DNA of 64,000 nt from Lytechinus pictus (taxonomy: Eukaryota): the NCBI RefSeq assembly GCF_037042905.1, contig NC_087250.1, forward strand, positions 4,218,001 through 4,282,000. Reading direction: 5' to 3'. The notes beneath the pieces are model-generated. The model did no database searches and was not told the DNA's origin. It saw nothing but the letters and a program-made list of their open reading frames with translations. Positions within the stretch are counted from its first letter, which is position 1; the number at the start of each line of letters is the position of its first letter. This document shows, piece by piece, positions 1-59,205 of this stretch. Made by a program: the position numbers and the translations under genes.

Positions 1-24
1 AATGACAAAGGATGCATTAAAGTC

Positions 25-380
25 GTAATTGCCAATTCATCCACTCACCACATAGTCTACCTTCATTTAGTCTAATGCCATTCCGTACATCTACATTTCG
101 TCTAACAACCATTTGGTCCAATAATCATTTGGTCCAATCATCACTTCTTCTAATCACCAGTTCGTCTAGTACCATTTCGTCTAATAACCAGTTGGTCTAA
201 TACCCATTTTCTTTACATTCATTTTGCACAAACAACACTTAAGTTTAATTAGACCAAATGGTATATGGACTAAATGGCTATTGGACCAACTGGTTATTAG
301 ACAGAATGGAATTAGACCATGTGGTGAGTGGACGAACTGATGGTAGACCAAATGATAGTAGACGAGGTGGCAATTGACTT
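25..380. mobile_element. Inverted-repeat MITE-like element with internal (tggtcca/tagacca) repeats
   Basis: aattgccaattcatccactcaccacatagtcta near 27-59 is mirrored by tagaccatgtggtgagtggacgaact...ggcaatt at 315-375. Confidence 0.6.
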
Positions 381-514
381 TAGACGAATTGGAAATAAAT
401 CGATGTTTATAAGCCATAATACTACAGTCGCACCAACGATACCGACCTCAGAACGACCGATCAAATGCCATTCAAAATAATGTATTAGTTCTGATCAGTC
501 TGGAGTCGGTTCAG

Positions 515-670
515 GGGACCGTTTCATAAAGAGTTACAACTGTTGCAAATTTGCCATTATGGCAACTACCATGGTAACCTCCATTCTGATTGGCTGCTGA
601 GGCTTGTTACCATGGTAGTTGCCATTATGGCAGAGTTACAACAGTTGTAAGTCCTTTATGAAACGGGCCC
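515..670. mobile_element. PIF/Harbinger-like MITE
   Basis: Near-palindromic, TIR GGG(A/C)CCGTTTCATAAAG, 3-bp TSD CAG on both sides. Sits inside an older inverted-repeat element (about 423-688). Confidence 0.85.
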
Positions 671-810
671 CAGATGCTGTGACTGGAGCATGGACGTTGG
701 CCAGAGCTCCGTTACTCGAAACTTATTTCTCCGGTAGTTTGCCATCAATGGTGAGAGCGATGGCAACAGAGCTCAGCGGTGCTCAGCGTCCACTAAGCAC
801 CAAGTTTTTG

Positions 811-932
811 TCATAATAACAACGGGACTACATTCATGTTAACGGTGAGCTGATATGGAACGTGGTCCAGGAATTCCCATAAAGGTATCAACTGTAAGGA
901 TGTCCCGTTAATGCACTGTACATCTTCGTCAT
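811..932 (-). CDS. Probable NLR terminal exon (DEDVQCINGTSLQLIPLWEFLDHVPYQLTVNMNVVPLLL*)
   Basis: tgactgtag| acceptor. A 40-codon phase-1 open frame runs to TGA and is compatible with the donor at 1176. Confidence 0.6.
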
Positions 933-3900
933 CTACAGTCATGTTTGAATGTTTCCTCGTGTTAACTTATACAAATGCCAACGTCACTAATGAAACTAAA
1001 TAAAACACATAAATCCTTTAGAATTGTCATCTCTAACAATAAGAGTTAAGAAGTGATTCGTCAATGATGACATTTTCTAATGAAAGATCTAGGAAAATAT
1101 TATCGCACATTAGAAAATAATGCACCAAGGTTAGAAAAACTGTCCTCTGAAAATCAATATTATACTTACAGCTCACTTCCACTTCGTCCCTTTGATCCCG
1201 TTTCCGACCGCAGCATCTGATAAAGCTTCTCAAAGTTTCCGAAGCATGACAGTTGAAGGATCTTCAGAGATGCTGACTTCTTGGTGGCCTTGACGAAACT
1301 TTGGATGGTAGCGTCTGAGACTTCCCCACATGTTTCCTCGACTTCTTCAGCATAGTGACGGAGTTGGTCACCCGAGGGTCCTGCCTTGATGTGGGACACC
1401 TTCGGCAACGTCTGAAGAACCATGGTCAGGATTTGGATCAGTGTCTCGGAGCTGAAGAAGTTGCTTAGCTGGAGATGCTCTAAATTGGTTAGGTTGCCCA
1501 GGACATTGTCAAGACCTTTGAGGCTGTTCCGGTGGCTGTCCACATTCCCTGGGTCGTGGTACATGATACACGAAAGACTCAGTACTTTCAGATTGGGATA
1601 GTTCCGGCACCATGCTGGTAGGTTTATGTACTTTGGATCAACATCCGTGCCCGTGAGCTCTTCCAGGGTCTCGGAAGAATGGAGATTAGAGATAAAATCG
1701 CTCGTAGAGAAGATTGAGTTCACCCTCAGACGCCGGAGGGTAGGTATAACGACGTCATCGGATAGTCTTCGTAAGGCTTCTCTTGAGGGACTGAATGTGT
1801 GTGGCATGTCAAAGATCATTTCTGGCACGGATGAGAAGTAACCATTCTGTAAACAAGCCGTAGCATAGTCCATATCAATTCGAGATGCAATGCAGAACTG
1901 GACTTTCTCTATATGAACTGGTTCCTCAGCTTCCCTAACAGAATTCAGGATGAAGTACCTGAAAGCGACATCTATCAAGAATCTCTTTGTGAACGCTGTA
2001 ATTTGAAGGGACCTTAGGTTAATTTGAAGTTCGCGGTTCAAGGCATCATTTCTGTGACACTCAAAGTTACATTTCAATACAAGCTCTTGAGCCGCCAACG
2101 TTGAACCAGGGTCCTTCCAGGCTAAATCACCAAGAACTCTCAGAATTCTCTTAGCGACATCAGGACTTTCACCGGAAGCAAATGTTAATATAAATCTCAG
2201 AGACTCACAGTCTGCAATAGTTCCAATGGAAGATAAGATATCTTCAAATATCTGTGGGTCAGTCCGGTGAAGCCTTGCCAGACCGATTGCTGCGCATTTC
2301 TCGTGCACTAGTGGGTGACAGAAAGACCACTCCCTGTCCTCTTTGCTTGAAACTGAATCATCGGCGGTGGAAAGGGTACATCTGATCAAACCTACTCTCT
2401 CAGCGAGTTCTGCACACTCTCGTTCACTGTCTGCCAGGTCCTTTGTCTTGAATGTTAGATGGCCGTTTGGTTTCAAGACGCTCTCCAGTGCTACACGACT
2501 GAGCCCTGACATTACATTTCTAACTGCCTCAACCACATTCGCTACATCTTCATGACCAATGAAGCAGAGAACTAGCGAAGAAGTAATGATATCTGAGGGC
2601 GTGTTGATGTCATGAAGCTGAGCATGATTCTCCCATAACTTGCAAATAGTTACAAGAAACATTGGTCGCGAGCAGAATGACAACAATACATCATCGCTGC
2701 CTACGTGTTGAAGAAGCTCAATGCCCCTTGCTTCATCAGATTCGAAAAACGAACGGATGAATTCGCTTTGGAGGTCAAAACTGAGACCTTGCATCTCAAC
2801 TGAGAGTACCTTACGTGTGGAGTCCTCACTTTCTGGTAGACACGCCCTACTTGAAACAATCACCTGGCACTGTACTATGTCTCGAAACTTCTGTACTGCC
2901 CGAAGGTCACCTTGTGAGCGGGAGACATCAAACCCATCTATCAGGAGAACGGAGTTCTTTGGGTGCATTCTAAGGTAACCATCAACCATTCTGGTCGTTG
3001 TTGAAGCGTCCGTAAACAGGAGGTGCTTGACCACTGCTTCTCCGATGCTACGACATCGTCGCAACTCCCCAAGGGTGAAGAAGAGAACTAACGGAACTTT
3101 GGAAAGAGGTGATTGCTCGTTGCCTTCCGCCCAGTCTAGAGCCAGCCTCTTCAGAAGACCCGTTTTACCACAACCCGCGTCCCCGTGTAGAAGGATAAAT
3201 GGCGGTTGTTGCTTGCCCCTCTGGTGAGCACTTAGGACGTCGTGCCTACTCTTAAAGGTTTCCTTCTGCCCACGTTCATTCTGATACACCGCTGGGATCT
3301 CCAAGTAATGCTGGCTCTTTATTGCATCAAAGTCATCGCTGACATACCTCTCCTTTAAGGCGTCTTGCCATCTTGCTACGCTATCTTCAAGGGATTGAAT
3401 CCTGCTCAGAAGTTTATCTGCAAGGAATGAACAAAATTGAAATATTATACTTGTCTGCCTATTCAGTTTTTATAACAGTTAATGCTATTTTTTTCAATTT
3501 CAAATGTTTAGATTATGTGGGTATTCTAAGAAGTATCACCCTAAACAAGGGAAAATGGGAAGAGGCCTAACAATACCTACCAATGACATTGATGACTACA
3601 TGAGTATTACTCTTCAACATTGCCATTTACCAAGAGAAATTTCAACCCCGATTTAGAGAAAACACAGCACAACTAATGCAGATTATGCTGCTTCAATTTT
3701 CAAATTTAAGGCAGGTTGTGGAAATTACTGCGAGGATTTTCCCCTTTCAGTTGCGCTATGAATACCAAGATATCCGATTTATCTAAGGGTTGAATACTGG
3801 GCCGTAATAGAGAACTATATAGGTGCAGAGTGTTCAAATATGCGGGACTGATAAATCGGGTAAATGCCACAAGTAAATGCTGTCTAGAATCCTTTGAAGA

Positions 3901-6900
3901 ATTTCGTATTCGCAAATTGCCACCGGCACTACAAAATGAATGATATTCCAGTTTGATAACGAACTACGGTGAGGATGTTTCACTTTTTTATATACATGTA
4001 AATCAATAAAAATATCTGTGGTGAAAAATATGATTCCCGCCCCACCCATCCACCACCACCCATACCTGTGAAGAAGGTTACAGATATGCTGATTTAAAAG
4101 ATGGATGACAGAATAGTGAATTTCCAATTATTGGGCCTCTGAGATATAAATCATGGGTTTGAAACTCGTATTCCCTTTGTGAACGTACTATTGGTAATGG
4201 CTGCATAAAGATCATCTCGACCCAGATCAGAGGAAACAGCAGCAAGTATCCGTCTTCCCTGAGGTGCGTTGCCAGAGCGTTTCTTCCAAAGCTTAAGAAC
4301 CGAAAATGCACATTGCGCCACGCCCTCTCCGTTCGCCTTTGACACATTCTTAATGTCGTTTTGGTTTAGGCCCAGCCGTTTGCCTATGATGAAAAACACG
4401 AAACATTTAGTGTTGTTAACAAGCTGATTTTTTTTTAATTCAAGCAAAACACATCTTAAAAGTGTGCGGTAAACGGTATGCGTGATGAGACATAATGGTT
4501 ACAATTGATATAATCTGATACGGCATGTCAACTAAATTTGAACTGATATCTGTAGAGAATACAGCATTATGTACTATGAACTTCATGAATCATAATGTGG
4601 TATTTTGACCAAACCTCTCGTCAAGAGAAAAAACATCTTCAGAATAATCGAACCATCAACTTTAGGCTTGCACAATCTATACGAAGTGATATTGAAATCA
4701 CTGAAGATTTTGCGCTGGGGCTAATCAAATTGTTTCAATGGTTGTCCTACCACTAACCTAATGTGTGCCATTCCGATGTAGACCTGATCTCTGTGGATAT
4801 TATACGGAGTTCTTCCAATGATAACTCCATCTTGGTCTTTGAGACAGTAGACTTTGGTGTTGATTTTCTCAAGGATTTGGGAGGTCCAGTACTTTTCGAG
4901 ACATCCGGTTTTGAACTACGCTTATGATCGGTAGGAGCTGGTTTTTGCGTATTTTCAGATCTGTCTGGTATACTGGTGACGCGACCAAGCGGATGAACTC
5001 TTTGAGTTTCTATAGGATCATTTTGTATGGTGATAGTTCCATCGACTGATTTCAAGACGGCAACTGCTACAGTTTCGCCTGGGTCAACTGGATCTAAACG
5101 GCTTGTGACCGTCCCCGGGTAGGGTTCTAACTGACTAGAACTTGGATCAAGATCTACTGAACCAGTGTCATCGTCGCTTTTGGATTCATAAACTCCTGCT
5201 TTATCAGACACCGTTGGGTGGTTAACAGAATCATCTTTAGCAGAAGGCGCCGATGAGGATGGAGCGGTACATTCATGTGGATCGGTTGTGATAATAGGAA
5301 CGGTGATGGACTTTGGTTTGGGTGACTGAGATCGCTGTTCGTTGTCGCTGAGGACTTCAATGGGGACGTGTATGACATTGTGTCTCTGCCACCTTGTTTC
5401 GTTGTCCTCATCCGATTCGTCCTCGAGACTTCATGGGAAAGACAAGAATAATTAATACTGAGATAAGTTGCGGGACTGATTAGAAGGGAAACACGAAGTA
5501 GGAAGGTAGGAGAGGAAGATGATTATGCTGATGATCATGAAGAAGAACGAGGAAAGGAAAACAAATGTAGATGATAAAGGTGAATAAGAAGAAAGAGGTG
5601 CACAAGAGAGAGAAAAAAAAGAAAACGATGATGATGAAGAAATAGAAAGAAAATGAAAAAAAAATAGGAGAAGAAGACGAAACAAAGAAGCAGAACAGGA
5701 TGATGAATAGCAGAGAGAAACGACAGGCAAGGACACGAAATGCAACCAAAAAGAACGTAAAGGGGAAAAAGAAAAGGAAGATGACGGAAAAGATGGTGGT
5801 AAGACAACATACATTAATCAAAAGGAAACGGAAGGAACGCATACAAAAGGAGGATTAGAAGAGAAATAAAAAGAAATACATTAAGGAAATACGAGATAGA
5901 AAAGGACAAGAAGATGTTGATAAATAATAGTTGAAGGCGAGTTGAAGGCAAGTAAAAGGGAAGGAGGGCAATGTGATTATTCTTGAACAGAGTTTAATAT
6001 TCTATAGGAATAATGCAATGACATTGTGAGCAAATAGTTAAAAGTATTGCTTCGAGTACATGTTCCTCCTCTTGATTTTCTAAATTCATCTTTTGACTAA
6101 TACTATGCATACGCTATCATTTTTTTTTGTTCTCTCATGATATACTTCGATCACCTTTGTATTAATCATCTGATCCAACTACTGCGTGAGAAATTGTTAC
6201 TTAAGCACTTAAATAAATATTTCGAAAACAACTGAACTGAAAGAGAAAAAAGAAGAAGAAAAGATAGAAAATAGAAGAAGTAGAAGATCGGATTATTAGA
6301 AAGAATACTGAATGAATTGGAAAATATGATCTTCAACATACCTGTCGCTTAAAGACTCAAATGTTTCCACTCCTGACTCGGTTTTATCGTAACTTCGCTC
6401 TGTAGTCATCGTTGTTCTTTTGTCATCGTCATTAATGATGTAAGGTATGTTTGGTGTGGACTCGGTTCCTTGTCTTCTATTCCTAGCTGCCCTGGATTCT
6501 GCTTCGAGTATATACGTTCTTCCTGCAATGATATGCAATGCAGTAGATTACTTTACGATTTCAAGTGCAGTGTTGATATTTTGGTGTTGGTGTTAGTTCT
6601 ATTTTTAAACATGGGTATAACATTAAATATAAAATCAAGATGGTCCTGAAATGTCACTAACGAGGTGTTGAGCTGTCAGTATTGTGATCCAGATCAATTG
6701 TGTAAACTCAAATTGGGTTTGGAGCTGGGAAACGCAATCCAAATTGGTTTTCTGACACCAACAGCAATACCAATACCGACCTTGAAATCACACAATGTTG
6801 GTTCTGGTTTATTGGTACGTTCCATTTTGGTGTTTGGTGCTGATGTCTACTTTTTACATGAGTATAAAATTAAATATAAAAAGAAGATGGTCCTAAAATG

Positions 6901-9900
6901 TCACTCATTAGGTGTTGAGCTGCCAATTGAAGCTGGGAACCGCAATCCAAATTGGTCTTCCAACACCAACATCGAACTTGAAATCACGCAATGTTTGTAC
7001 TGGTTTTTTGGTACTCGACACAACACCTGGCAGGACTTAATACTTACACATAGATAGGGTATACTTTCGGCCGTAGAAGGGATGCAAGGGACATATTGAA
7101 CCAGTGGTCAACTACTCTTGATCGAGTAACTAATTATGAGGGGATAATATCATCACTGTGTTTTACCATTATTCTTTACTTCAAATGCGTTCTTGTCATT
7201 AGACTCTAGTTTTTATTAATTTTTTTTAATTTGTCGGTAGGATTGTCGGATTTCAAGCTAAATGCTAAAACAGAGGAACTGTTAGTAATCTAATGAAGAT
7301 TGTAAATAAGTTGGCAATCCTCGTGCAGTTCTCCTCGATCATTTGTATATGTTATTTGAGGTATTTGTTTAAAACGACACTAAACCACCAAAATACTAAA
7401 AGTTTATGGTAGCTGTCACTGCAAACAAAACAGGTGATAATCTAACATCAGAAAGACATCTATCACAGCAACATTAGCGAAGTGTTGGAACAACGCGAAT
7501 TTGGTTTCGAGCCAACACAAGGCAGGTATTCTAAACAACTGTCTGTGTTAAAAACAACTTTGGTTTGACGCTGAACTGGTGCCCGTTTCATAAAACTTGT
7601 TCTATTAACAAATATGCAATAACAGTTAAAGGCCGCTGATATCTTTCAATCTGATTCAATCTGGTACTTTTGCAGTTTAAAGTCCAGATTAATAAAGACT
7701 TGCTATAGGTAATGCCCAATATCTATAACAAGCTTACTATCAGCCAATCAAAACAATCTATTTGAGTAGCTTCAAGCTGTTTATGAAACATTCCCGCTGG
7801 TGTTAGTCTGCAGACACAGATTCTTGGTTTTCGCAATTCGCATAATGCATCATGCAGAGTGTGACGTGTTGAGACTAGATTCACTGCATACTGTGGCTGG
7901 CTCTTATTTGACACAAACATAGGCCCGTATTCTGAAGTCAGGTTTGACTTAAACTCAGGTTTAAAGTTGTGGTTTAAGTATGGGAAGCCAAAAGTATCAA
8001 TTTTTTTCATGAATTTGTATGCTTCTTATGTTTACTGTGCTCTTTCCTGATTCATCGATGGTGAAGACAATCATCTATTTATACTTCCCCGGATCCTTCC
8101 TAGACAATTATGAATGATTTCAGAGCCAAATGAGCTGAAAGATGATTTCTCTATCGTTAGTGATTTATGTAACAGTTGGCTATCCATACTTAAACCACAA
8201 ATTTAAACCTGAGTTTGAGTTAAACCTGACTCCAGAATACGGGCCATAGATATCTGCGTCTAGTCTTCATTCTAGACATGGTATAGTTGTCAAATTTGAG
8301 TCTGTGCCTGCAGACTACCCTGGTGTTCGTGCAGGGCTATACTTACGTTTGATTTTATTGTAAAGATCTTCACGCCCAACTGTTGACAGCGCTAAGGCTA
8401 GGTGAGATCTTGGATTGATCACCTCAGAACAGTTGTTTTTCCATAGCAACAGAACTTCCATGGCACAAAGAGGTACGTTTCCAAGGTAACGCTCCTTGAA
8501 TGCGGCAAGTCTACTGCTGGATATTCCAAGATGGCTACCAAGACGCATCCAGTCCGAATCCCGTAGCTCCTCGACAAGCTCCTTGATCTCCAGATCTGTG
8601 ACCTCTGACCTTTCGAGTCGAGTTGAAATCGGTACAAATGAAGAGTCCCTTACTGCATAAAAGTGAAAAAGAGACACTATAGTGAGTAAGATACTGTGCA
8701 CACGGTACCCTGCGGGTGTGACTTTCGTAAAGGTTTTTGTGAGTTACGATCGATTTTACTGGTGGTTTATGGTGTACACACCAAATGTGCCGATTTAACG
8801 CGTTAGAAAAGATCACCAGTCATTCCTAACGCACAAAGGACTTTCTGAAGCACCAACAGGGTATATAATAATGTCCCCTATATAGATAGGGGACATGGCA
8901 CGGGGGGGGGGGGGGCAGTCAAAATATTGCAGTACACACGCGTGACCAAAATACGCGTTTAAATGGGTGTTTTTTCAGTTTTGGACGCGGGCCGCGCGTG
9001 CACTCGTTAAGGGTATCAAAAACACCGATAAAAAGGTGGTTTTGAAAGACTGGTTAATGGTCAATCGCGAGGTCCAACTTAATTATGGTATTTTTTTTTC
9101 CAATGCTTTTTTTAGACTAGCCAAATGTGTTTAGGGTATGTTTTGCCCCCAAAACTTTTCCCCGGGGTCATATTTTTGTTACAACTTGTTTAGGGGCCAA
9201 AATGTGTAAATAAAGCCCGCGAATTTTATTGAATTATGTTAGAATCTATTTTTAGATCTTGAGTACTGTCGACTGGCATTAATATCTAACTGTAACACTG
9301 ATCAATAGTGCTATGCAATAAGAGCCTATGTATGCAGAGTAATTGTCACAGTCACACCAACAAAGCCAAAAAGCCATTTCAAATCGATAAAATGCCCTTT
9401 TCAATAACGTTGGTCGGTTTGAAGTCGGTATCGTTGTAACTGCGACACAGACAGGATGAACGTAAAAAAACAAACAAAAAAATACCTCCATAATAACTTT
9501 CCCTCCTTTCCATTGAGTGATATCCCATTGATGTAATATTATCTTCTTCATGGGTTGCGAAAGAAGTCTCTCTGCGAACTAAATGTGCTGCGTGTGGGCG
9601 GTAATTTCCGGTCATCCTCGACCTCACATCCGGTACAGCTGAGGCGAGTGGATGGAACCGGGTCTCGTGCCAGGACTGGGGCAGCGGCCGACTTTCCATC
9701 TCGTCATCTCTCAATTGGGAACTAAGGTAATCCTGACTGGATCGCCTTCTGTATTGTATCGGTTGGCTCGGTTGTTCGGTATATTGGCTATGATGGGCCA
9801 TTTGGTGGCTGTGGTGGGCGATGTGCTGTGAGACATTCTTCGGTTTCCGGGTGAACCGGCGTTGTTTTCCCGGTGATGTGGCAGGTTGAACCGGTTCATC

Positions 9901-9951
9901 TCCGAACTGGTACCGGCGAGATTTATACCGCTTTGAGTGACTTTGTCCCAT
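811..9951 (-). CDS. NLR-family immune receptor (death domain x2 - NACHT - LRR), multi-exon, about 1,393 aa
   Basis: Coding exons 9951-9486, 8652-8347, 6522-6342, 5428-4758, 4383-4189, 3417-1177 and 932-811 are bounded by GT/AG and join in phase (1,1,2,1,1,1), totalling 4182 nt. NACHT motifs: Walker A GDAGCGKT, Walker B LLIDGFDV, sensor-1 SSR, CSRPMFL, FCHPLVHE. LxxLxL repeats follow. Two W..LG..LG...LLLW...GR.DL death-fold segments are present. Confidence 0.88.
1177..3417 (-). CDS. NLR exon 6, NACHT + winged helix + LRR-like region
   Basis: Extends the 712-aa track ORF upstream in frame to the acceptor ttccttgcag| at 3418. NACHT motifs as above. The 3' end is either the a|gtgagc donor (1176) or read-through to TAA at 1166. 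Confidence 0.93.
4189..4383 (-). CDS. NLR exon 5, remainder of death domain 2
   Basis: ttttcatcatag| acceptor. Encodes KRLGLNQNDI...AFSVLKLWK...LGRDDL. The donor a|gtacgt was chosen because it gives the required phase 1 and is less certain. Confidence 0.8.
4758..5428 (-). CDS. NLR exon 4, S/D/P/T-rich linker plus first helices of death domain 2
   Basis: Frame is open from the acceptor cttgtctttcccatgaag| (5429) through the track ORF 4753..5211 to the TAG|gttagt donor. Ends LSLEELRIISTEIRSTSEWHTLG. Confidence 0.85.
5465..5965. repeat. Purine-rich (GAA/GA) low-complexity intron tract
   Basis: Almost only A/G on the plus strand. Source of spurious F/S/L-rich ORFs. Confidence 0.85.
6342..6522 (-). 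CDS. NLR exon 3, polar linker
   Basis: cattgcag| acceptor, CAG|gtatgt donor, open frame, phase 1-2. The phase-2 end matches the next exon. Confidence 0.78.
6565..7030. repeat. Degenerate element with two ~250-bp internal units (ggtgttgg / caacacc)
   Basis: attaaatataaaa..aagatggtcct.aaatgtcact and gcaatccaaattggt...cttgaaatcac each occur twice. Confidence 0.55.
7804..8317. mobile_element. Non-autonomous DNA transposon with TAGTCT termini and 9-bp TSD (AcademH- or MULE-like)
   Basis: TIR tagtctgcagacacaga / tctgtgcctgcagacta. Flanks cgctggtgt / ccctggtgt. Confidence 0.75.
7922..8245. mobile_element. Harbinger-like MITE nested in the 7804-8317 element
   Basis: About 60-bp TIR ggcccgtattctgaagtcaggttt..., 3-bp TSD ATA. 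Confidence 0.85.
8347..8652 (-). CDS. NLR exon 2, death domain 1
   Basis: ttatgcag| acceptor, |gtaagt donor, 306 nt, phase 1-1. Encodes DWMRLGSHLGIS...MEVLLLWK...LALALSTVGREDL. Confidence 0.88.
9486..9951 (-). CDS. NLR coding exon 1 (MGQSHSK..., disordered H/Q/R/S-rich N-terminus)
   Basis: ATG in strong context (gtcaagATGG) with in-frame TAG and TGA just upstream. Acceptor (ttg)n-tag at 9997-9998, so a non-coding exon lies further 5'. Donor GAG|GTATTT is phase 1. Confidence 0.75.
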
Positions 9952-11204
9952 CTTGACTTTTAACTTTCTTTGTTCTGTGTCTCAAGCTTGCTATTCCTAC
10001 AACAACAACAACAACAAAAACGGGAAATTGTTATTATGTATTTCTTTTAAAGGGGTTCGGTAACCTTATGAAAACATAATATACATGACAAGAGATGCCG
10101 AATAGATTTTATTTTGCAAGCTCCATGGAGATTCCTTTTCAGGCAAAAAGAAAGAGAAAATGAGGCCTCATGGCGATTACAAATTATAAGAGGAACATTC
10201 CGGTGGCGATAACAGCTTGCAATATAAGTTCAGTAGACCTACTTCATATTTCGGTTATGTGTATTCAATTTCAAAATGGCAAAAATGAAAATACACTTAT
10301 TTCTTACATTCACTACATTAAATCTGTTAAAGTTGTACCATTTCATAAAAATGCTTTATATTGGGACACATTTTTCTTAAGGAAAATCACATCATGGTGG
10401 CATTATAATGTTGGTAATGCTAAGGAGCTTACATTAATTAGGCTTGGTGAATACGGGGTGAAAATCATAACAGCAGAAGTGTGCAAAACTACTAATCAAT
10501 CCAGTGTTATTATATCACTATCTGAATACATAGGCCCACTTTTAAGATAACATGCTAAGTCACTACTAAATACATGTACATTCATACCGAAATAAATTTG
10601 TTACCAAGTAGCAAACAAGTGCTTTTCCTTTCAGAGACATGTTTTGTTTATCTTCAGAAACTAAATTATATGTATGCTTATTTATTGTTCGTACTATCCA
10701 AAAAACGGTGTGTTTTAAGACTAGCTAGTTATAACACGCAATCAATGAGAGACCCACAGTGCGTTCTTCAGTTTGCCTACCACACCCTTTAAACATGTTT
10801 AAAGCTATTCATGGAGTGGCCGACTCGAAAATAATGAATAAAAAATATCTGGTTATTCAACCTTGTATTATACAAGCACTGGTAAGGTAATATTAAATTC
10901 TAAACAAAATGCTGAAACTGCACAGCAACGAACTATGTCTAATACTTGTCTGATAGCACAAGCATAGAGCCATTAGCTCCATGGCACAAGTTAACGGACT
11001 GCATGTTAAACCAGAGTGTGTGGAAATTCCATTTTGTTTAACTTCGTATTTGCACTGCGTGTCAAAAGATCCTGTTCCAATAGATCTTACATCAGCTTTT
11101 TGGGCAACAATGTATCACATGAAAATCTATAACTCGTGTTTCAGGAGGGTGTAGGCTGCAGCTTTATAATATTTGTCGTCACGCCTGCAACGAAAGATAG
11201 CAAG

Positions 11205-12470
11205 GGCGATTCCATATGTGTCGTAGGGGACATTTCGACAACAATTTCTATTCTCTTAAATGCTTGAGCAATAAATGTTTTTTTTTGTCAGTGAAGGTTA
11301 CAGGGGGTAGTCAAGTGAAAAACTGATAACCAGCCCCCCCCCCCCAAAAACGTTTGATTATGGATGAATTAAAGGTAAAAATGTTGTGTGTCGTATTGGA
11401 CTAAAAGATCTCCCGTGGGGGAAGGCGGGGTAAGTTGTGACACTTTTTGCATTTTGCATGTTAGAATTGATATGACTAATAATATTGTAGACATAAATAC
11501 CCCGCCTTTAGATTTGATTGTTGCGAAATGATTTTCACCTATATATAACTTTCTACCCCCACAATGAAATTAATTGTGACCTTTGAAAAAACGGTGTCAA
11601 ATGGCTCAACTTGCCCCATATGTGGGGTAAGTTGTGCCACCTTCTGGGGTAAGTTGAGCCACAAAAACTATGTACAAAATGTATGCGGGAAGAAGCAGCA
11701 TGTCAATTTTTTTTTCAAGTCTTTTCACTTGCTAATTCTCTATAAATACATACTCTAAAAGTAAAAGAACTGTCATGTGAATTTGCACCTTTCTGCCTGC
11801 ATATCAATGGCTTTTCAATGTTTTATTTTTTATTTTTTATTATACATTACCATAAGAATTACCATGGTTCAACTTGCCCCATGTTGGCTAACTCAAAGTA
11901 CCCCAGTCTTAAGTTAATGCGATATTTTCACATCCACACATTTCTTATGCATCCATCATTTAAAACACTATGACAAGAATGAAGATCCATACCTTGACTA
12001 ACAATATTGTTCTTATTTCTTTATCATATTTAAAGACGTGTGTGGGTAAAAAGCACTCATCTTTTTTACACCCTTTTTTAATTTTTTGGCTGAAATTTGT
12101 ATTTTCCCCTCTAAAATAGTACTTTTTGTTTCAAAGTCGAAAACAATATGGTTGGGTAAAGGGTTATGTAATGAGTCATCAATACATGACACCACCACAA
12201 TATCTGACTCATTCATTATTGGCCTGGGGGTGGTGGCTCAACTTGCCCCTATATGCTCAACTTACCCCGCCTTCCCCTACGTCGCGCAACATTTTCACCT
12301 CTAATTCACCCACGGACAACATATTTTTGTTGGTTGTCACAATACCACGCGACTACCCCGTAGTACTTTATTATTACCACAAAACAAATTGAAGTTCCTC
12401 ATTTGTTTAGACAGGAGGTTGAAAAGTGTTGTGAAAATGGCTGATTTCTCTAGCTGCATGGAATCGCCCG
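11205..12470. mobile_element. GGGCGATTCCAT-terminated element carrying a nested TIR element (about 11414-12280)
   Basis: Outer TIR gggcgattccat / atggaatcgccc. Inner TIR ggggaaggcggggtaagttg / caacttaccccgccttcccc, with internal copies of the same motif. Confidence 0.7.
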
Positions 12471-29970: not shown

Positions 29971-32900
29971 CTGCAAAAACGACAGAAACACGTCCATATA
30001 GTAAGCTAGTTAATAGGTAAGTTAGATATAGTTAGATACTGATTTTTCAATCGTTTTAATATTTCGTCGGCGTTCATCCGAACCGTTGTATAAGTCAATT
30101 TTGGTCAAACAATCGATTTTGAGATTTTTGCAGAAAATGAAAGTACAAGCCCTATCCTATTCAGAACTAAATTTCTAGGCAGCAATTTATTTTAGTTTCT
30201 TAGATATGAGGGGATTTTCACGGCGATGCCGTACAATGTTTTAATAAAATGTGCAAATACCATTGGAAACGTGTACAGTAGCAGAGTGATACGACGTTTT
30301 GACTGACCGCAATTTTAATGAGCGCGGTCAGCCAAACTGTCGTATCGGCCATCTGCACCTCACTGACTTTGCACGTGAACAGTGATACGACGTTTTGACT
30401 GACCGCACGCATTGAAATCGCGGTCAGGGGAGCGTTTCATGAAAGGACTTGTCGGACGTTATATCCGACAAGTCCCATTTTATCCGACCATCGTAACAGT
30501 ACCTCTCAGCCAATCAACAACAGAGAAAGATGTCAGATCTGACAACTTGTCGGATGAAAATGTTGATGAAACACTCCCCTGGTTTGTTGTATTTCCTATG
30601 ACATTCTTGTACAGGGGTTATCTAAACCGCTCAAACAGAAATTACAAGCATGTAGCTCGTTTGCGATATTTTCTCTGATTCTTGGTTTTGTGTAAAAATA
30701 AGGATATCATTGCCAAGACGTTGTCTTGGTCTTTTCAACCGTGTACTTTTCTAGCAATGAATATGTTGTAAGGCTGCAGAGCTAAGTGTGAAAATGTTAA
30801 TAACCTTTGAAGTCGATTTTCTCTGAAATGGGTTTGCACCGTCGTATGTGTGATACGCCGGTTCGAATGACCGCCGACGATTTATTCACATTTTTTTTTC
30901 ATTAACCTATTGATTCCTTCTATCTATTAATTCATATATTCATTCAATATCTTTCCGTTTTGATTTTATGGAACATATATGTGACCTACCACCCCAAAAC
31001 CAACAATAAGTCGCCAGGTACGGTGAGGTTCTCTGTAAGTAGCCAAAATATAAATTTATTATCCCAAAACCAAAAATTGCAAAAAGGGCTTATCTGGAAG
31101 AGTAATTATTCTTCTTCATACTGTGAAAAGTCTAGAAGTTGAATAAAATAAAAGATACAAGAGTTTCTTGGACACTACTTTGTCGGACTGCTTGGAAGTT
31201 TCACTCAGATTGCACAGTATGCACATCTCATGCTTGAGAGAACCCCAACTTCAAAAACTGTTTCCCGTTTATTTTTTAAGCTCTTGCTGAATTTCCTCTG
31301 CATTAGGTCACGTACTTGTAATGGTTATTTCTGGTCAATTTCAACATATCATATATGTTAGGAAATGAATGTTCAAGCTCAATAAAAATACTAATATTCA
31401 TTTTGGTCGAATTATTCTCGGTTTTGGGGTGGCAGGTCACAAAGCACAGGATAAAAACAGGTTCGATATTGTTTTTTTCCATTTCTGGTGCAGATGCAGC
31501 AGCATAAAAACTTGCAAGATTTTGATAATCATCTCGTATTCATCAATAGCACATTGAATAATAATTTGCATTTATGGAAATGAAATATTGTCATGGTTAT
31601 ATTTTTTAATTATCTTTTCAATTTGGGTTGACTTCGTGGTCAGCCATCGAATTCGCCCCCACTTAAAACTCACCAGATTAAGGATATCATTAAGAAAACC
31701 TTTAGAAAGAAGTTGCTGATGTTACCGGAATAGTTATTTCTCTGATTTATCCGTGCTTCATACATGCCTCACCTGACATTAGACTCCCGATGTTGCCACC
31801 AAGGCCTGCCACAAAACCAAAGATTCCAGATCCAACCGTAAAGTTCTCATTGGAGACGGAACCCTTTAGGAGCGCAGCGTAAGAAATCACAAAGCTGAAG
31901 ACACACACTCCCTGAAGGAAGGCAGCGACGCACATGACAGGGAATGACGTCAACAGTGGATCGAGTAAGAAAACAGTTGTTGATATCACGCCGAAGATCA
32001 GAAAAACTAAGATGAAGTCAATTTTAAGGAAGAGAAATATGATGGACATTATCCGTCCAATAAACCCCCCAGCGCCGGCTAGAGATGATAGTAAGACGGC
32101 CTTTGAGACAGGTATTCCATGCCATACCGCCCGTGGGACAAGGAATAGAATCCACGAATTTACAACAACTGCTGAGAGCAGAAGGCAAGGTAATGACAGT
32201 AATAAAAGCGGTTCTTGGATGATGATGCAACCTTGAACCGAATGCCACAATCGAACCGCCCAACGCTGCTTTCGTCGATTCTGTGATTCGTCTGTTTGTG
32301 GTAAAATGCTGCGTGATTCTTCATCGTGGGTTGCAATCACCTCAGTGCTCTCACGGTCGCAGTCATCACCGTCGATTAAAGGTTTTTGGCAAGAGTCAAT
32401 TGCCTTTGCCGACTTTACGAATGTCTGTCGACCCTGTCCAATCGCTCTTGTGGACTGTCCAGGAGAAACAGTGGTTCTTTCCGCGCTCTTTGTGGATGTC
32501 TGGGAACCCTCTTCAATAGTGTCTGCGGACTCTCCGAGATAAACACTGTTCTTCTTCGCCGTGCCTGTGGATGTCTCTGAAACCTTCCCCACTGCTCTTC
32601 TAGTCTGCTTGAGATAAACACTGATAGGAATGGCATGCATGCTGATACCTCCAAGAATGAGCATGGCACCGCTGAATCCATAAGCGCGAAGCGCCCTCTC
32701 GACGATGAACGGTACGACCAGGGCGCCTACCGTGCTTCCGAGATGGCCTATCGTATTTACAAGAACGAAATTCTCCGGGAAGTGGTCGTTGAGTAAGACT
32801 TTGACTGTTATGTATACCATTGAGAGTCCTAATCCTAAGATTGAGATGGGTAGAAAAAATAAAATAAAATAAAATAAAAAGAGATATAATATATTAATTT

Positions 32901-33703: not shown

Positions 33704-36700
33704 ATAATAATAACAATGATGATGATAATGATAATAATAATGATGATAATAATAATAATAACAACTATAATAATGATGATGATAATAATAATAATAATAG
33801 TGATAATGATAATAATAATAATAATAATACATAAGATTTATATAGCGCACTTTCCATCCTGATTAGATGCTCAAGGCGCTTTAGAGCAGAACAAAACTAT
33901 TTACATATAATACATGTCTGAACAATAAGTCAATGTCTATCAAAAAACACTTTTGTACAGGTATGTTTTCAGGTTGCCCTTGAAGGTGGTCACTAAAGTC
34001 TGGGTTTTCAAACTGTGTGGGAGAGAATTCCACAGGCTAGGCCCTGCATGAGCAAAGGCCCGCTCCCCGCATGATTTCTTAGCAACTGGAATTTGTAAGA
34101 GATTAGATGATGAGGATCGTAAATTTCTTGAGGGTTGGTAATGATGCATCAAAGACCTATTGTAACTGGGGGGAAGTTCCATTGGCTATATGAAAAATCA
34201 AAAGAAGGATTTTAAAGACTATGCATTCCTTCAGGGGCAACCAGTGAAGAGTTTTCAATATAGGGGTGATGTGGCTGCGCTTGCTAGATATAGTTACAAT
34301 ACGCGCAGCTGCATTTTGCAACCTTTGCAATTTTCCAAGTTGAGAATCTGGTAAGTTGTAAAGGAGGCTATTACCAAAATCGAATCGTGAAGAAATGAGT
34401 GAATGTACCAGTTTCTCTGTTGCTGAGCGAGTGAGATATTTTCTTATGAAACCAATATTGCGCAATTGATAACGAACTGATCTGGAAATGTTTGTAATCT
34501 GGTTGGACATGGACATGTGAGAATCAAAGATAACTCCAAGATTGCGACATGTTTTTGACAAGGGGATGTCATTGCCTGAGATAGAGATGGAATCAATGTT
34601 GAATTTGTTAATTTGAAACTTTGAGCCAAAAACTAAAAACTCACATTTACTATGGTTCAAAAGTAACGAGTTTGACTTCAACCGAGTGTCAATGTCACAA
34701 TAAAATAATAATAAAAGGTATTTGCATTGCGCCACCTATCTAGAAATAATTTATTCCATGTCGCAGTGTTGTTGTTATTATTACTACCCCGGCCTTAGCT
34801 CGAGCTGCCTTTCAACGCTCGTCCATTCAAGGAATGAATCCTGCCAGGTACCCACTCACCTTATTTGGGTTGTGTGCAGCACAGAGTGGATACATTTCTT
34901 GCTGAAGGAAAACACGCAATGACTAGGATTTGAACCCACGGCCATCTATTCGAAAGGCGAGAGCCAGAACCACTAGACCACGACGCGCCCCTATAGGAGT
35001 TGAAGTCAGGAATGGATATACCGAGATGAGAGGTATTTCCCACTTTTCGCCTGTGCAACGCAGACGGACTTTACGACGGTATATTGATTTGGGAAGAGAC
35101 TTTTCGGCCCGTCGTCATGGTCGTAAAACTCTGTCCTACAATGCAGATTGTGTGACATGAATTTTTTTTCGTTTCGCATTTGCAACGGAAACATTCAATC
35201 TGCGTTTCGTGTGCAAATTTCTAATTGCTACTATGGTTACAGCGATATATCCGATTTAGGACGACTTTCTAGAGCCACATTTGGTTCCTCCCAGAGCGCG
35301 AGAGGCAGCCCGGGGGCCCACTTTCATTGACGAGTGAATACCAGGCGCGACCACGCGTAAAGAGGGAAAGAGTGGGCAAGTACGTTACACATAGGCATAT
35401 GTAACGTTTTAAGGGATAAATTTCCAATACTTGTAAGGTTTCACAAGACAAATACTTGTTAAGGGATGCATTTGCATAATCTGAAAAAGACTTGCTTCCC
35501 TTGGTTTAGGGTGCTTTTCGAAACCCCATAGTCGCGCCTGGTATCCAATCATCAATGGAAGTGCTCCCCCCGGAAATTTGAATCTAATCCCCCATTTCTG
35601 GGGAAAGTAAAACATAATGCCCATTACATTGTGTGCTACAGGCATATCGTTTTTAATGTGTAGGAGGAGCAAGCAAAAGACCCCCCCCCCGCAAATTCGG
35701 ATGGTGTTCAGACGAATAGGCCTATTGCATTTGCTGTGTACATATCAACGCATGCGAAATGGTTTCGGCTGGAGAGGTGATCTGACCCATGGAATCAATT
35801 GCAAGTGATCCACCAATAATCCACATTAGATGCAGTATCGATTCGATATGAAGTTGACGGTTTTGAGTCTCTCGCTCCTGAAATTTATGGTTTCTTTCAT
35901 CTTTTTTTAAATACTTTACACTGTTTTTATGTTTCCAAACTTGGATATTTGTGATCTTGGAAGGTGATTTTAACTTCTTATCTTGACTAACTGGACATTG
36001 TATATCTGGTAAGACTACAGTGACTCGTTTTTGAACTTACGCTTTTCAAATTGATCAGAGCCTCCGTATAATTTTATGTATGCGTACTGTGGTTATAGTC
36101 GCTTATGCTCAAACTGATACTCCGCCAATTGTCCATCCAGCTATAGCCATGGTAAAGAATGGCTCAGTCTAAACTTTCCAAACCAAAAACTAACGTCGGA
36201 TATGGAACCCCAGGTTCAACTGACTTTAGATGCAAACTGCCTAAAAATATAACTATATCAGGGATCAACACGGCCTTATATCATATTCCGAAAAATCACC
36301 TCGATCAAGCAGTCCTGAAAGATGATCATATAGATTATGTTGTGAATGAGTTATGCTCTATCTACCCAAACCTGAACAGGAATATTTGCCGTCATTATTG
36401 TATTTCATCAGTTAACAATAATGAGAATGTCCGAATAGATTCATGCTCAGAGAATTATATTTCTGACTTAAATGAGGATGAAGATCAATAAAGTTTGATT
36501 TTGATCCAAGATGGCGCTGTCATGGCTGATGGTCAAGTTGGTTTTCCTCTCGATACTACTGATTTGAATATCAATGAAAACTCGGCCAGTTCCATGAGAA
36601 CTGAACTTCAACAAGTATCGGATAATCCCAAGGGCAATGAAGTCCTAAACAATGGTGTACCTCATCAACTTGAAAATAGAGTCAGGGATTTGGAATCCGT

Positions 36701-39041
36701 TGTAAGAGACCTCCGAGCCCAGTTGCTGTCTATACAAGAGAAGATCGCACAGCCCACAAGCAATGGAAAATGTAGCAAGATGCTCAATGGTACTGCTAAT
36801 CGCATTGTCCTTGCAACAAAAGGATATAACTCTGCTACTCACATGACAACCAATGAAGCTGAAATCGATCCTGCCACGACAAGAACAAATTATCTGCATT
36901 GTCACGAACAAAACCAACCTTCAATGGATGAACAGCTACGTCACTACCGAGCAAGACATCAACTCATGAGAGCTTCAATTAATAATTCTTCGACATCTGT
37001 ACAAGATGCTCATTCAGCCGATATCCTAATAGTTGGTGATTCCATGATAAAGGGCATCATACCTTCTAGGCTGTCAAAGAGACCCATTAAATGCAAAACA
37101 CTTCGAGGCGCTCGCATTGGAGACGTCTGCGACATTGTCTGCGAGGAAGCTATTCAGCTTTTAATGCAAAGGAAGTTCTTCTTCACTTCGGCTCCAATGA
37201 TATCACCTCTCATGACACAGCTGAAATAGTCGCAAAGCTTGAATCATTAGCTGAACAGATTACTGATTTAACCCCAGCGAAGAAAAGTTGCTTCTCAACA
37301 ATAATCCACCGTCGCAGAGAATCATCGAGCTGCTACGAGAAAGTGAATTGTGTAAACGCGGCTTTGAAACTTCTAGCCAATCAACGAAGCTGGGCTGTCG
37401 TAGACAATGACAACGTCACGCCTGACATGCATCTTGCCGCTGATGGCGTTCACCTAACTAAATGGCACCGGTGTGCGTGTATTGGCACAAAACATCATCG
37501 CTTATCTTCGCGGTTTAGCTTCACGATCAGCGTTTCGCCCATACGAAGCTTCTCCCACTGTCGCCAGCAATCAGGAAAGAACAAACGACATGTTGTCTCA
37601 ACCCATGAACCAACCTCAGCCTTTTTGGCAAGCCAAGAAAGCGAAATTTCGCAAGAAACCATCTCGCCGAGTCTTTCCAAGAGATTGGTTAGATTGTTTT
37701 CAAACAGCTCGGAAACTTCTCAACGACAGGAATTAGACAATAGCTACACAGACTTAGTTAACAACTGCAAATACTATGAACTTGAAGATGGTATTTTTCC
37801 CCAACTTCCCGTACATGGACTGAAAATCGGTCACGTTAATATTAATTCACTTCCATCGAAGATAGAGGAATTAAGACTCAGTCTAAGAATGTGTAAATGT
37901 TAAATACAAGGGAATGTGTAAACAATATGACCAAACAAAGGAAATAAATATATTCGGTAAGCAATAACAGTAATGATAATCAGACAATTATGACAATGAG
38001 GGTAAAAAAAATGTATAACGATCTCGATTTAACATCTGCAAGGCTATTTTTTTTTTCTTTTTGAGGAAATAGAGGGATCCACTGAATAGCATGACTTTTA
38101 AATGTGGACTTAAGTTAAGTTAAACCAACCTAATTATGTCATTTAATATATAACCCCATGATTGTTCCACTGTGCGCTGAATAAGACAATAGTAATTCAT
38201 CCTACATGAGCAAGTTAAGAATTGATGAAGAGGTTTGAGGTTCGAGCCCTAGCTAGCAAGATCACATCTTTCGGATATCTTGTTAAAGGTCGGTCCAGAC
38301 GTAAATTCTAACAGCGTTATATTTGATTCATTTTAGATGTGATATCGGGGGCCCGTCTTACAAAGAGTTACGATTGATCCGATCAATCGCAACTATGGAC
38401 GGTCAGCAACGTTAACATCGATTATGCATGTTTATTCAAAGTATTTTCTAGCTATGGTGTATCATTCATGCATTCATTGTTTTCTTGATAATTCACTATG
38501 CTTCTCTTTGCATATAAAGGACATTGTGCAAATTTTTCGTACAAAATAATAGGGCATTGATGGATTTCCATAGAGTTACCATTGATTGAATCAATCGTAA
38601 CTCTTTGTAAAACGGGACCCGGGTCATATTGAAGCCTCAGAAAACCTACTATACAATGCACACCCAAATACACACGTCCACATTCAGATTCTTACGAGCA
38701 CCCACAGTGGCAAATGTAGACAAACGCCTTGCCAAAACACGTGAGTGCTGCGGTGGGATTCGAACCCCGAACCTTGTGATTCAAAGTCCTGAAACATATC
38801 CACTGAGTCACAACACCGTCACAACACCTCTACCAAAACCTTTAAATAACTTACATCCAAAGGCCGTCATGGCAGCCGGCATGCTACACACGAGTCCCAA
38901 TGACGAGGCATCAGTTGAGAACACAACCAACATGGTCGGGATCAACACTCCGAACGACCTCATTGTGGCTATACGGAGGAGGAATTTACTCAAAACGATC
39001 AGGTACTTCCGTTTATCTTGTGACTCTCGATTATGCTCCAT
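29840..39041 (-). CDS. SLC16/monocarboxylate transporter-like MFS protein, copy A (4 coding exons, 508 aa)
   Basis: Exons 39041-38855, 33430-33284, 32834-31773 and 29970-29840 have GT/AG boundaries, all introns phase 1, 1527 nt in total. Multiple TM helices, large polar central loop, and motifs typical of SLC16: RSFGVL, YGFSGAMLILGG, GFIGR, KDKTGSY. Confidence 0.88.
30428..30579. mobile_element. Harbinger-like MITE
   Basis: gggagcgtttcat / atgaaacactccc TIR, CWG-type flanks, internal inverted tgtcgga/tccgaca. Confidence 0.7.
30980..31441. mobile_element. TGT...ACA non-autonomous DNA transposon
   Basis: TIR tgtgacctaccaccccaaaacc / ggttttggggtggcaggtcaca. Absent from the paralogous intron near 54555. 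Confidence 0.8.
31773..32834 (-). CDS. MCT copy A exon 3
   Basis: tcttag| ... CAG|gtgagg, 1062 nt. Matches the 357-aa track ORF. Confidence 0.92.
33284..33430 (-). CDS. MCT copy A exon 2
   Basis: tattgcag| ... CAG|gtaaat, 147 nt. Encodes hydrophobic LPMAYVLKSAFISPRAMAVTG... Confidence 0.88.
33636..34700 (-). mobile_element. L2-clade LINE 3' fragment with expanded microsatellite tail
   Basis: RT C-terminal remnants (LLNHSKCEFLVFG, RNLGVIFD, LQRLQNAAAR, LHWLP, GERAFAHAGPSLWNSLP), a frameshift near 34175, the L2-type gcgccttgagc...gcgctatataaat end, and (ATT/AGT)n at 33636-33830. Confidence 0.9.
34715..34992 (-). mobile_element. tRNA-derived SINE
   Basis: ggggcgcgtcgtggtctagtgg...ggttcaaatcc head. 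Body shared with the 13020-13590 copy. Confidence 0.8.
35310..35573. mobile_element. CCCGGGGG-terminated TIR element
   Basis: ccgggggcccactttcattgacgagtgaataccaggcgcgac / gtcgcgcctggtatccaatcatcaatggaagtgctccccccgg. Confidence 0.7.
36159..37885 (+). mobile_element. 5' part of a CR1/L2-group LINE: disrupted ORF1 (coiled coil + SGNH esterase) and start of ORF2 endonuclease
   Basis: IVGDSMI, HFGSND and DGVHL SGNH blocks spread over frameshifted ORFs, stop at 36489-36491, then GLKIGHVNINSLPSKIEELR (APE start). Confidence 0.85.
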
Positions 39042-56922: not shown

Positions 56923-57600
56923 AAACATCTGCATTAAGTATTAACCTTGCATACCGGTTTGTAATCGTTGGTCTTTTGTTACATAACATATTGCACTCTG
57001 CCCCCATATTGCATTACAATAATCAATGTGCGGTAAAATAAGGTTATTATACATCATTAATAAAACTCGCTTGGGCAAGAGGTACCGAATCCGTCGTATA
57101 AAACCAATAGTTCTTGACAACTTATTGCACACATTATTGATATGACAACTCCAACGCAGGTAAGGGTCTATTATCAAACCGAGATATTTAAATTCATTAA
57201 CCTGTTCAATTGCATCATTTTTCACATAAATATTTATCATTTTGTTTTTTACTTTTGATCTAGTCCCAATTAACATACGTTTGGTTTTCTTTACATTTAT
57301 GGTTGATATATTATTTTCAATCCATTGAAGTAATTTGTTTATTGCACATTGAAAGTCGTTTTGAAGTACTGAAACATCTCTATTTTGACAGAATAAAGTA
57401 GTCTCGTCGGCATATACACACAATTTAAAATTATTACCGAAATTGATATTGCAAGCATCAATTATGAATATTGAAAATAATAGAGGAGAAATCATACTAC
57501 CCTGGAGAACACCTTAAATAAGTAATTATAAAACCAAATTGCCTCTACGCCTTTGTTTGACAACTTAGATAATAAAAGCTTGTGTGAAACTGAGTCACAT

Positions 57601-57998
57601 ACCCCTTTCATAAACCCAATAAAACCCATCCTCCAATTAGCCGCCTAAGAGTAATGCGGATAATTCAATAAAAATTGCGTTCACAAACTCCGAAAATTAT
57701 CCGCATTATTTTTACGAGCGCCCGTCCTGAAAAAGGCGGATAATCGTCATGACAACTGGACACGCCCCCTCCGATGCGGTTGTGTTGGAAAAGGGTGACC
57801 TTGTGACCGCACCATGGCAATTATCCGCATTATTTGGAAATACGTTCATAAACTCAAAATCTTGTCCCGATGCCGCTATTATGCGGATAATAGCAGCATC
57901 AGAATAATGCGATTAACTCTTGTCCTCCTCTGATTTTACGACCAAATTATGCTGCTATCAGCCGCATAATTTGGTTTTATTGGGTTTATGAAAGGGGT
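57601..57998. mobile_element. MITE inserted in the LINE RT region
   Basis: TIR acccctttcataaacccaataaaac / gttttattgggtttatgaaaggggt. Confidence 0.85.
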
Positions 57999-58803
57999 AA
58001 TGGGCACTCTTTAAATCAATAAAACAACCCCAGTCACCAGACCATCTTCGATATTGCGTAATAAATATTCATTATTAAACATCAACCAAAACAGTACTTG
58101 TTGAATGAAGTGGACGGAATCCTGACTGTTTTGGGGCTAAGTAGAGAGTTGTCTGTGAAACAGTTGTAAAGTTAAGAGTGTATTGCCTTTTCAAGGATTT
58201 CATTATGTGAGGGAGAACAGAAATGGGTCTGTCGTTAACGAACTCTTGTTTACTGCCGCTTTTAAAAATAGGGGTTACACGTGCCCTTTTCCAATCTTTT
58301 GGAATACAACCTGTATATAAAAAGTGAGCGATTACGTCACAAAAGTGAGCACTCTCTTTCAAAAGAAGTGGGTGTAAAGAATCTAAACCTGGTGCTTTCG
58401 TTGTGTCTAACTTATTTAGCTCCTTGAATACGTAGTCAACCGTGATGGGCTCGAACTTTAAAGATTCGGAGGTTAACTGATCAGATCTATATTCTGATTA
58501 TTACAGCAATTTGGTGTGAAGTGATTATTGAATAAATTTGCAATTTTTAGAGGATCGCTTTCTAGTCTGTCATTAATAACATCGCGCATCCCAAGTTGAT
58601 TAGTTTCTTATTTTTAAATTCTAGTTATTTACTTTGTTTGGTATTGTTTCCCTATTAAAAGACTACCTTTATCGATGAGATAATGTTTACCATCAAATCT
58701 TTCTTTTAAATAATCTTGTTCTCTCGGAAGACACAAATATTCATCAGTAATCCATGGAGAACGTTTGTGTCGCTGCCTGGCGGATATGAGTGGTGCATGT
58801 TTA

Positions 58804-59205
58804 GGCCACCGCACACCTTACGACTGTTCGCGATCAGATTTGGGAACAAATCGCATTTTGCTCATTTTCTGAAAATGTGAATGGAACATATAAATATTTG
58901 AGGTTAAAATCAATTGAAAGAATACTAATATAACCATTTTGAAAGATTGCAAGCTATTATTTTGGAGTAAGTGTAGTTTCAAATCGTAGCCAATCGTATG
59001 ACTGCTATGACATCATTACGACTAGATATTAAATTTGCTTTTATTCTAAGGATGATAGCATAGACACAGATTTGAACATAGGTATTCGTACGATGATTGA
59101 GAGCATTACATAGTACGATATTCCAAGTCTCAATATTAGCATCAAATTCTACTACATTTTATTCTGAAATCGGGTCGCAGACAAATCGTAAGGTGTGCGG
59201 TCGCC
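58804..59205. mobile_element. Harbinger-like MITE inserted in the LINE
   Basis: TIR ggccaccgcacaccttacga / tcgtaaggtgtgcggtcgcc, TTA/TTT flanks. Confidence 0.8.

Follow-up and report, generated by a model that had tools for sequence, protein, structure and literature searches.

Where in the cell an NLR is placed decides what it senses and which partners it recruits, and the locus described here raises the question of whether an animal receptor of this kind could be held at a membrane by a lipid on its own N-terminus. The locus lies on contig NC_087250.1 of Lytechinus pictus (assembly GCF_037042905.1), in a stretch of 64,000 nucleotides (positions 4,218,001 to 4,282,000 of the forward strand) that was analysed as a whole and is called the window below; all features of the gene are carried by its minus strand. 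A preliminary description of this DNA had proposed that an NLR encoded here begins with an N-myristoylation motif and a basic patch, and that it may represent a membrane-tethered class of animal NLRs. The motif and the patch lie at the start of the first coding exon of a protein with two death domains and a NACHT domain, and the residues that matter most for acylation are kept in every orthologue N-terminus found, which suggests a myristoylated and possibly membrane-bound protein. The 5' end of the gene carries the following features.

9982..9999, minus strand: upstream in-frame stops, from the sequence and its in-frame translation
9486..9951, minus strand: coding exon 1, 466 nt, 155 codons plus 1 nt, ending in phase 1; product MGQSHSKRYKSRR
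9931..9951, minus strand: predicted N-myristoyltransferase (NMT) recognition heptapeptide MGQSHSK, codons 1-7, which fits MG[^DEFRWY]x[^DEKR][ACGST][KR]
9913..9933, minus strand: basic patch KRYKSRR, codons 7-13, which adjoins the putative acylation site and includes the invariant Ser11

The start codon is the ATG at 9951-9949 (minus strand), and the frame that it opens reads MGQSHSKRYKSRRYQFG... (also written MGQSHSKRYKSRRYQFGDEP...). Within 16 codons 5' of it the frame is interrupted by three stops (TGA at codon -11, 9984-9982; TAG at -14, 9993-9991; TAG at -16, 9999-9997), no ATG besides the start codon occurs between 9996 and 9951, and the context gtcAAGATGG (A at -3, G at +4) is a strong one. 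By its three upstream stops and its strong context the start codon is well defined as far as the DNA can tell, and the first ATG singled out in the preliminary description, for just these properties, had been placed at the right coordinates. Just 5' of the start codon, at 9997-10015 (minus strand), there is a (TTG)n polypyrimidine run, ttgttgttgttgttg, that ends in TAG. Since the TAG at 9999-9997 is preceded by this run, the AG at 9998-9997 is a candidate acceptor; the exon may then begin at 9996, with a non-coding exon further upstream, and if so two in-frame stops would still be left inside the exon. At the other end the donor GT (9485-9484) directly follows the last base of the exon at 9486.

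The codons for the three key residues of the heptapeptide lie at 9948-9946 (Gly2, GGA), 9936-9934 (Ser6) and 9933-9931 (Lys7) of the minus strand. Residues G2, Q3, H5, S6 and K7 satisfy both a loose PROSITE-type pattern, which we take to be PS00008, and the strict NMT pattern, and the earlier assignment of Gly2, Ser6 and Lys7 to the NMT consensus is thus confirmed with both. The strict pattern is credited to Castrec et al. in the available part of PMC9018777, and the available part of PMC2133112 gives GXXXS/T as the minimal consensus, with Ser6 preferred and Lys7 important for efficient myristoylation. With the composition of the proteins P0001-P0003 (introduced below) as background, the strict pattern is expected by chance at a frequency of 0.0011 and the loose pattern at 0.011. 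The genome contains at least 65 NACHT-like matches and therefore one motif match alone is not compelling; conservation decides. The enzyme itself is present in the genome, where PF02799 (NMT_C) scored above its cut-off on three exons at G000:C13:8.57 Mb.

The basic cluster reported next to the motif was recovered, with five K/R in residues 7-13: K7, R8, K10, R12 and R13 give a net charge of +5 across residues 1-16 (K and R minus D and E). Six orthologues have 5 K/R within residues 1-20 and the two Diadema species have 3, and residues 21-60 contribute 5-8 more K/R vs 0-2 D/E. Residues 1-20 contain no Cys, so there is no neighbouring candidate for palmitate. The residues of exon 1 as a whole are hydrophilic (mean Kyte-Doolittle -1.43) with S, R, Q, H and P abundant; a hydropathy scan of the exon found no hydrophobic 19-mer, signal peptide or transmembrane helix, and exon 1 matched no Pfam family and had no look-alike in the ESM-Atlas. 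It is probably, on these properties, a flexible and disordered linker carrying short conserved motifs.

Orthologues were collected using exon 1 and the full protein as queries, and those that bear the N-terminus are as follows.

L. pictus: P0001 and P0012
L. variegatus, two loci: P0013 and P0015, 1350/1369 identical to each other
S. purpuratus LOC105441599, older model: P0017
Diadema setosum: P0002
D. antillarum: P0009
cluster of four exon-1 open reading frames (ORFs): P0004, P0006-8
further exon-1 ORF: P0005, ~50% identity

All 12 of these records start MGQ[SG][HV]SKR..S[RK].YQF and match the strict motif. The retention of G2 and S6 in orthologues had been named beforehand as a test of the idea, and G2, S6 and K7 are kept in 12/12, out to Diadema. 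Lytechinus and Diadema belong to different orders according to a taxonomy lookup, and their divergence is of the order of 200 Myr. Whole proteins of the two are 45-46% identical and the rest of exon 1 falls to 40-50%. With one sequence per lineage (window, P0004, P0005 and P0002; 4 of 9 aligned), 10 of residues 1-16 are invariant vs 28 of the 139 residues after them (Fisher one-sided p = 7e-4), and residues 1-16 form the best-conserved 16-residue window of the exon. The positions read by NMT (2, 3, 5, 6 and 7) stay within their allowed sets in all lineages, and it is position 4 and the non-invariant ones among 9-13 that vary. In a large proteome the motif could turn up once by chance; that every orthologue seen has kept it is, on the alignments, not plausibly accidental.

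Conservation within exon 1 is concentrated in islands at residues 1-16, 29-38, 69-76, 98-101 and 143-149. Apart from the first, those invariant across the four lineages are KQRRFTRKPK (29-38, a second basic patch), RR[ST]S[QE]DYL (69-76, presumably a basophilic-kinase-type site), RF[HN]P (98-101) and GYxSxER (143-149). It was also observed that the first exon of S. purpuratus LOC105441599, present in the older model P0017, is gone from the current one.

Exon 1 matches itself alone in the 812-Mb genome, and identity to the nearest NACHT paralogue is 26-31%. The gene is a conserved single-copy gene that lies outside the expanded NLR clusters. The two L. variegatus loci represent a recent duplicate or a haplotype copy, vs one copy in the window genome. 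The nearest NACHT paralogues (8 loci) were checked in 6 frames for an MG start; their NACHT exons are internal and none was informative. A word-based search that scored 7999 candidates, and which is weak evidence of absence, found no orthologue outside the echinoids; the best non-echinoid match was a crinoid NLRC4-like protein, 23% identical, with a DED and no MG start.

The gene model, for which the NCBI protein P0001 was mapped to the window, has six exons inside it, joined by five GT-AG introns into 1355 codons free of stops, and the features downstream of exon 1 are listed here in the order of transcription.

8653..9485, minus strand: intron 1, 833 nt, GT...AG
8347..8652, minus strand: exon 2, death domain 1 (Pfam Death 30.1 bits vs cut-off 22.6)
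6342..6522, minus strand: exon 3, linker
4758..5428, minus strand: exon 4, acidic Ser/Pro-rich linker and the beginning of death domain 2
4189..4383, minus strand: exon 5, remainder of death domain 2
1170..3417, minus strand: exon 6, NACHT NTPase, helical domains and LRR-like C-terminal region
about 7710-7760 of L002, ~240 nt before window position 1 and so outside the window: exon 7, last 16 codons and TAG

Without exon 7 the frame inside the window would stop at a TAA (1168-1166) within the GTAAGT donor. The model is identical at 1355/1355 positions to P0012 (XP_054757793.2, "uncharacterized protein LOC129263902 [Lytechinus pictus]"), and the gene is thus already annotated by NCBI, though as uncharacterized. 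The acceptor of intron 1 reads ...ttatgcag/TA at 8652, and the GT-AG join in phase 1 gives ...ESYYG followed by VRDSSF... (also written ...ESYYG followed by VRDSSFVPISTRLE...). The joining of exon 1 to the death-domain exon, which the preliminary description had left to be confirmed, is predicted by NCBI in L. pictus, L. variegatus, both Diadema species and, in the older model, S. purpuratus; in the window its borders are GT-AG and in phase. Similarity among the read-through exon-1 ORFs of other lineages stops at the predicted donor, which fits a conserved exon end. The last intron contains two 16-nt tandem repeat arrays (94-209, 7.3 copies; 248-319, 4.6 copies), and an Rfam search of window positions 1-12000 gave no match.

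The order of the protein, as read from its translation, is a predicted N-terminal lipidation signal, a hydrophilic linker of ~140 residues, death domain 1, an acidic linker of ~260 residues, death domain 2, the NACHT domain and an LRR-like tail. In the full-length protein Pfam Death scored 52 bits over 2 stretches, and the stop-to-stop frame that holds exon 5 (4151-4498) scored 22.4 bits vs the cut-off of 22.6. The nearest solved sequence for death domain 1 was the FADD death domain, at a marginal E of about 1e-3, and for death domain 2 the TNFR1 death domain, also marginal at E 0.03. The NACHT domain (PF05729) scored 57.6 bits in exon 6 vs a cut-off of 26.7 and 58.5 bits in the full-length protein; the translation of exon 6 contains the Walker A sequence GDAGCGKT, and in a profile search the best solved relatives of the NACHT and helical part were NLRC4/NAIP (E 6e-13). 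NB-ARC reached 12.8 bits vs a cut-off of 23.5 in the full-length protein, where there was no Pfam match for CC (coiled coil) or Rx-N.

The C-terminal 300 residues look like leucine-rich repeats (LRRs) by eye, with NLKVLSLSC, LTNLEHLQLSN and SLKILQLSC. The LRR models stayed below threshold (LRR_4 17.9 vs 27; LRR_14 12-16 vs 40), the classical LRR regular expression found no match in the C-terminus, and the peak at lag 28 in the hydrophobic autocorrelation of this region did not rise above shuffles. A weak match (E 0.18) was obtained to NAIP residues 1129-1303, presumably the LRR region of NAIP, and hhalign against P0010, an LRR-bearing crinoid NLR, aligned the NACHT/helical part alone and stopped short of the LRR. 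The protein may therefore be described from its domains as NLR-like: NACHT and death-fold effector domains are present and the LRR is a candidate, below every threshold. Of the animal NLR class put forward at the outset, the NACHT and death domains stand, whereas the LRR falls below threshold and the "class" reduces to one single-copy orthogroup, confined to echinoids by the searches made.

A number of caveats weigh against a myristoylated, membrane-bound product. A motif match alone is not proof of myristoylation, and the first basic patch of the Diadema proteins is weaker, with a net charge of +3 over residues 1-16. All of the orthologue proteins are computational models or ORF calls, ORF callers take the first ATG by construction, and P0012 is most likely an annotation of the same sequence and hence not independent. 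The current S. purpuratus model P0003 and P0016 start downstream and are without exon 1. The conserved peptide also runs on to YQF (14-16), past what NMT needs, and it may serve for binding, in addition to acylation or in its place.

The last of these points leads to the rival that survives best, in which the N-terminal peptide is conserved for some other reason (a nuclear or nucleolar signal, docking of a partner, or an N-terminal glycine degron) and the protein is soluble. Recognition by NMT does not account for the conservation of YQF, which lies outside the region that the enzyme reads. The minimal nuclear localisation signal (NLS) pattern is K[KR]x[KR], and KRYK at residues 7-10 fits it in 6/8 orthologues; however, neither Diadema sequence has the pattern, while 8/8 have the strict NMT motif. 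N-terminal glycine degrons do exist and, according to the available part of bioRxiv 10.1101/2024.06.24.600508, act on an NLR fragment. Against a role without lipid, every position that NMT reads remains in its allowed set while other positions vary, and an NLS, docking or degron role would in any case be compatible with myristoylation. A soluble protein of this kind is considered unlikely, though far from negligible.

A second rival holds that exon 1 is an alternative or rare first exon, or a mis-join of the annotation, and that the dominant protein starts downstream. This would agree with P0003, which begins at a Met inside death domain 1, and with P0016, which begins further downstream. A start inside death domain 1 would, however, truncate a folded domain, and the exon 1 join recurs in the predicted proteins of five species, including the older S. 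purpuratus model; in the window it is a GT-AG splice with matching phases. Exon 1 is also single copy, lies 833 nt upstream on the same strand, and has diverged in step with the rest of the protein (~74% vs 73-76% for the strongylocentrotid-type sequences; ~41-45% vs 45-46% for Diadema). A downstream start for the dominant protein is improbable. A chance match without function is more improbable still: the loose pattern would be matched by about 1% of random N-termini and the strict pattern by 0.1%, so that some matches are expected in a large NACHT family (65 NACHT-like matches), but the motif is kept in all 12 orthologue N-termini, in at least four echinoid lineages, despite divergence of the exon to 40-50% identity.

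The reading preferred here is that exon 1 is the true 5' coding exon and that its product is myristoylated and membrane-bound. The first element is held with high confidence; myristoylation of Gly2, predicted from the motif and its conservation, is likely, and membrane binding would follow very probably if the protein is myristoylated. Taken as a whole chain the judgement leans only slightly in favour. Myristoylation of Gly2 is proposed because MGQSHSK fits the NMT recognition pattern: Met1 would be taken off by methionine aminopeptidase and myristate put on Gly2 by NMT during translation. Myristate is a weak anchor and would be reinforced by K7, R8, K10, R12 and R13, together with the second patch at 29-38, binding to acidic lipids, in the "myristate plus basic" two-signal mode of Src and MARCKS. 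The platform of two death domains and NACHT would then sit on the cytosolic side of a membrane, with the plasma membrane or endosomes as the likeliest candidates, on a long flexible tether, and activation would lead to oligomerisation and to the recruitment of death-domain partners at the membrane. It may be speculated that the invariant Ser11 in the basic patch is a phosphorylation switch that could release the protein, an idea for which MARCKS and TRAM provide the analogy. The fullest version of this proposal, in which an old single-copy receptor with two death domains and NACHT has been permanently anchored, from Diadema to Lytechinus, by N-myristate and a polybasic, possibly phospho-switchable patch, is put forward tentatively, its chances falling somewhat short of even.

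Comparison with known systems shows both the likeness and its limits. According to the available part of PMC13043302, the plant NLR SUMM2 depends on its myristoylation at Gly2 both for attachment to the plasma membrane and for cell death, and MGxxxS/T occurs in 65% of Arabidopsis group II CNLs. The plant group II (CC-G10) NLRs, such as SUMM2 and RPS5, resemble the urchin protein in being STAND immune receptors that start MGxxxS/T. However, SUMM2 and RPS5 possess NB-ARC and a CC domain where the urchin protein has NACHT and death domains, and in the plant proteins the lipid sits directly on the folded CC domain, often with a neighbouring palmitoyl Cys, whereas the urchin protein has no Cys, a polybasic patch and ~140 hydrophilic residues between the predicted anchor and the death domain. 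By this analogy the resemblance to plant N-acylated NLRs would be convergent and not homologous, and the urchin protein may work alike without being a member of the group.

The anchors of Src and MARCKS share G2, S6 and K7, the following Lys/Arg cluster and the lack of a palmitoylatable Cys; those proteins are kinases or actin regulators, and the likeness is limited to the anchor. Among innate-immune signalling proteins, the available part of PMC10014160 reports that the N-terminal myristate of TRAM (TICAM2), a TLR4 adaptor, is essential for membrane localisation and signalling. TRAM differs in being a small TIR adaptor without an NTPase or death domain. The animal NACHT receptors NOD1, NOD2 and NLRP3 also need membranes to signal, and are recruited to them via S-palmitoylation or polybasic regions according to the available part of PMC12433868. 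Their lipid is a reversible S-palmitate placed on internal Cys by ZDHHC enzymes, in contrast to a co-translational N-myristate, and they carry CARD or PYD effector domains in place of death domains. NLRC4/NAIP are alike in their NACHT and helical domains, the closest among solved structures. The urchin gene differs from the expanded sea-urchin DD-NACHT-LRR family (DD, death domain) in being single copy, outside the clusters, with two death domains, long linkers and an LRR below Pfam thresholds. A death-domain N-terminus is said to have been described as typical of sea-urchin NLRs by Hibino et al. in 2006.

Membrane tethering of animal NLRs is in itself not a new idea, since NLRs of anthozoans and sponges were predicted to be membrane-bound through putative N-terminal transmembrane helices (PMC3879445, available part). 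These would be integral proteins held by transmembrane helices and not lipid-anchored, and "myristoyl" has 0 occurrences in the available text of PMC3879445. What would be new for animal NLRs is thus the N-myristoyl plus basic route alone, and to this extent the tethering suggested in the preliminary description would keep its novelty. A literature search judged on titles and abstracts, with most subscription papers and supplements outside it, found no N-myristoylated animal NLR or NACHT protein, and the LOC identifiers of the gene were not found in any searched paper. The absence of a myristoylated animal NLR from print is regarded as provisional.

Elsewhere in the window, 31747-32898 and 54825-56021 (both minus strand) are paralogous large MFS transporter exons (MFS_1 E about 1e-13 each), ~23 kb apart, which look like a tandem gene duplicate. 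Retroelement remnants were found at 56941-60325 (minus strand), 34157-34735 (minus strand) and 36492-37903 (plus strand). Among them an ORF matching RVT_1 (E 5e-13) adjoins an ORF with sub-threshold PHD and endonuclease matches, a further reverse transcriptase-like ORF had no Pfam match, and a plus-strand ORF pair gave a sub-threshold GDSL-esterase-like match; a domain of this type occurs in some LINEs.

The finding has a notable parallel in plants, but it neither overturns expectations nor resolves a long-standing question. Should the prediction fail, residues 1-16 would be left as a strongly conserved short motif without an explanation. If it is true, this would be the first N-myristoylated animal NLR and a convergent counterpart of the plant SUMM2/RPS5 type, with death-domain platforms placed at the membrane. 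A myristoylated deuterostome NACHT receptor would then be a third, convergent animal solution, beside plant N-myristoylation and vertebrate palmitoylation. For the sea urchin itself the gene would be a membrane-proximal signalling hub, and not a fast-evolving sensor copy among the hundreds of sea-urchin NLRs.

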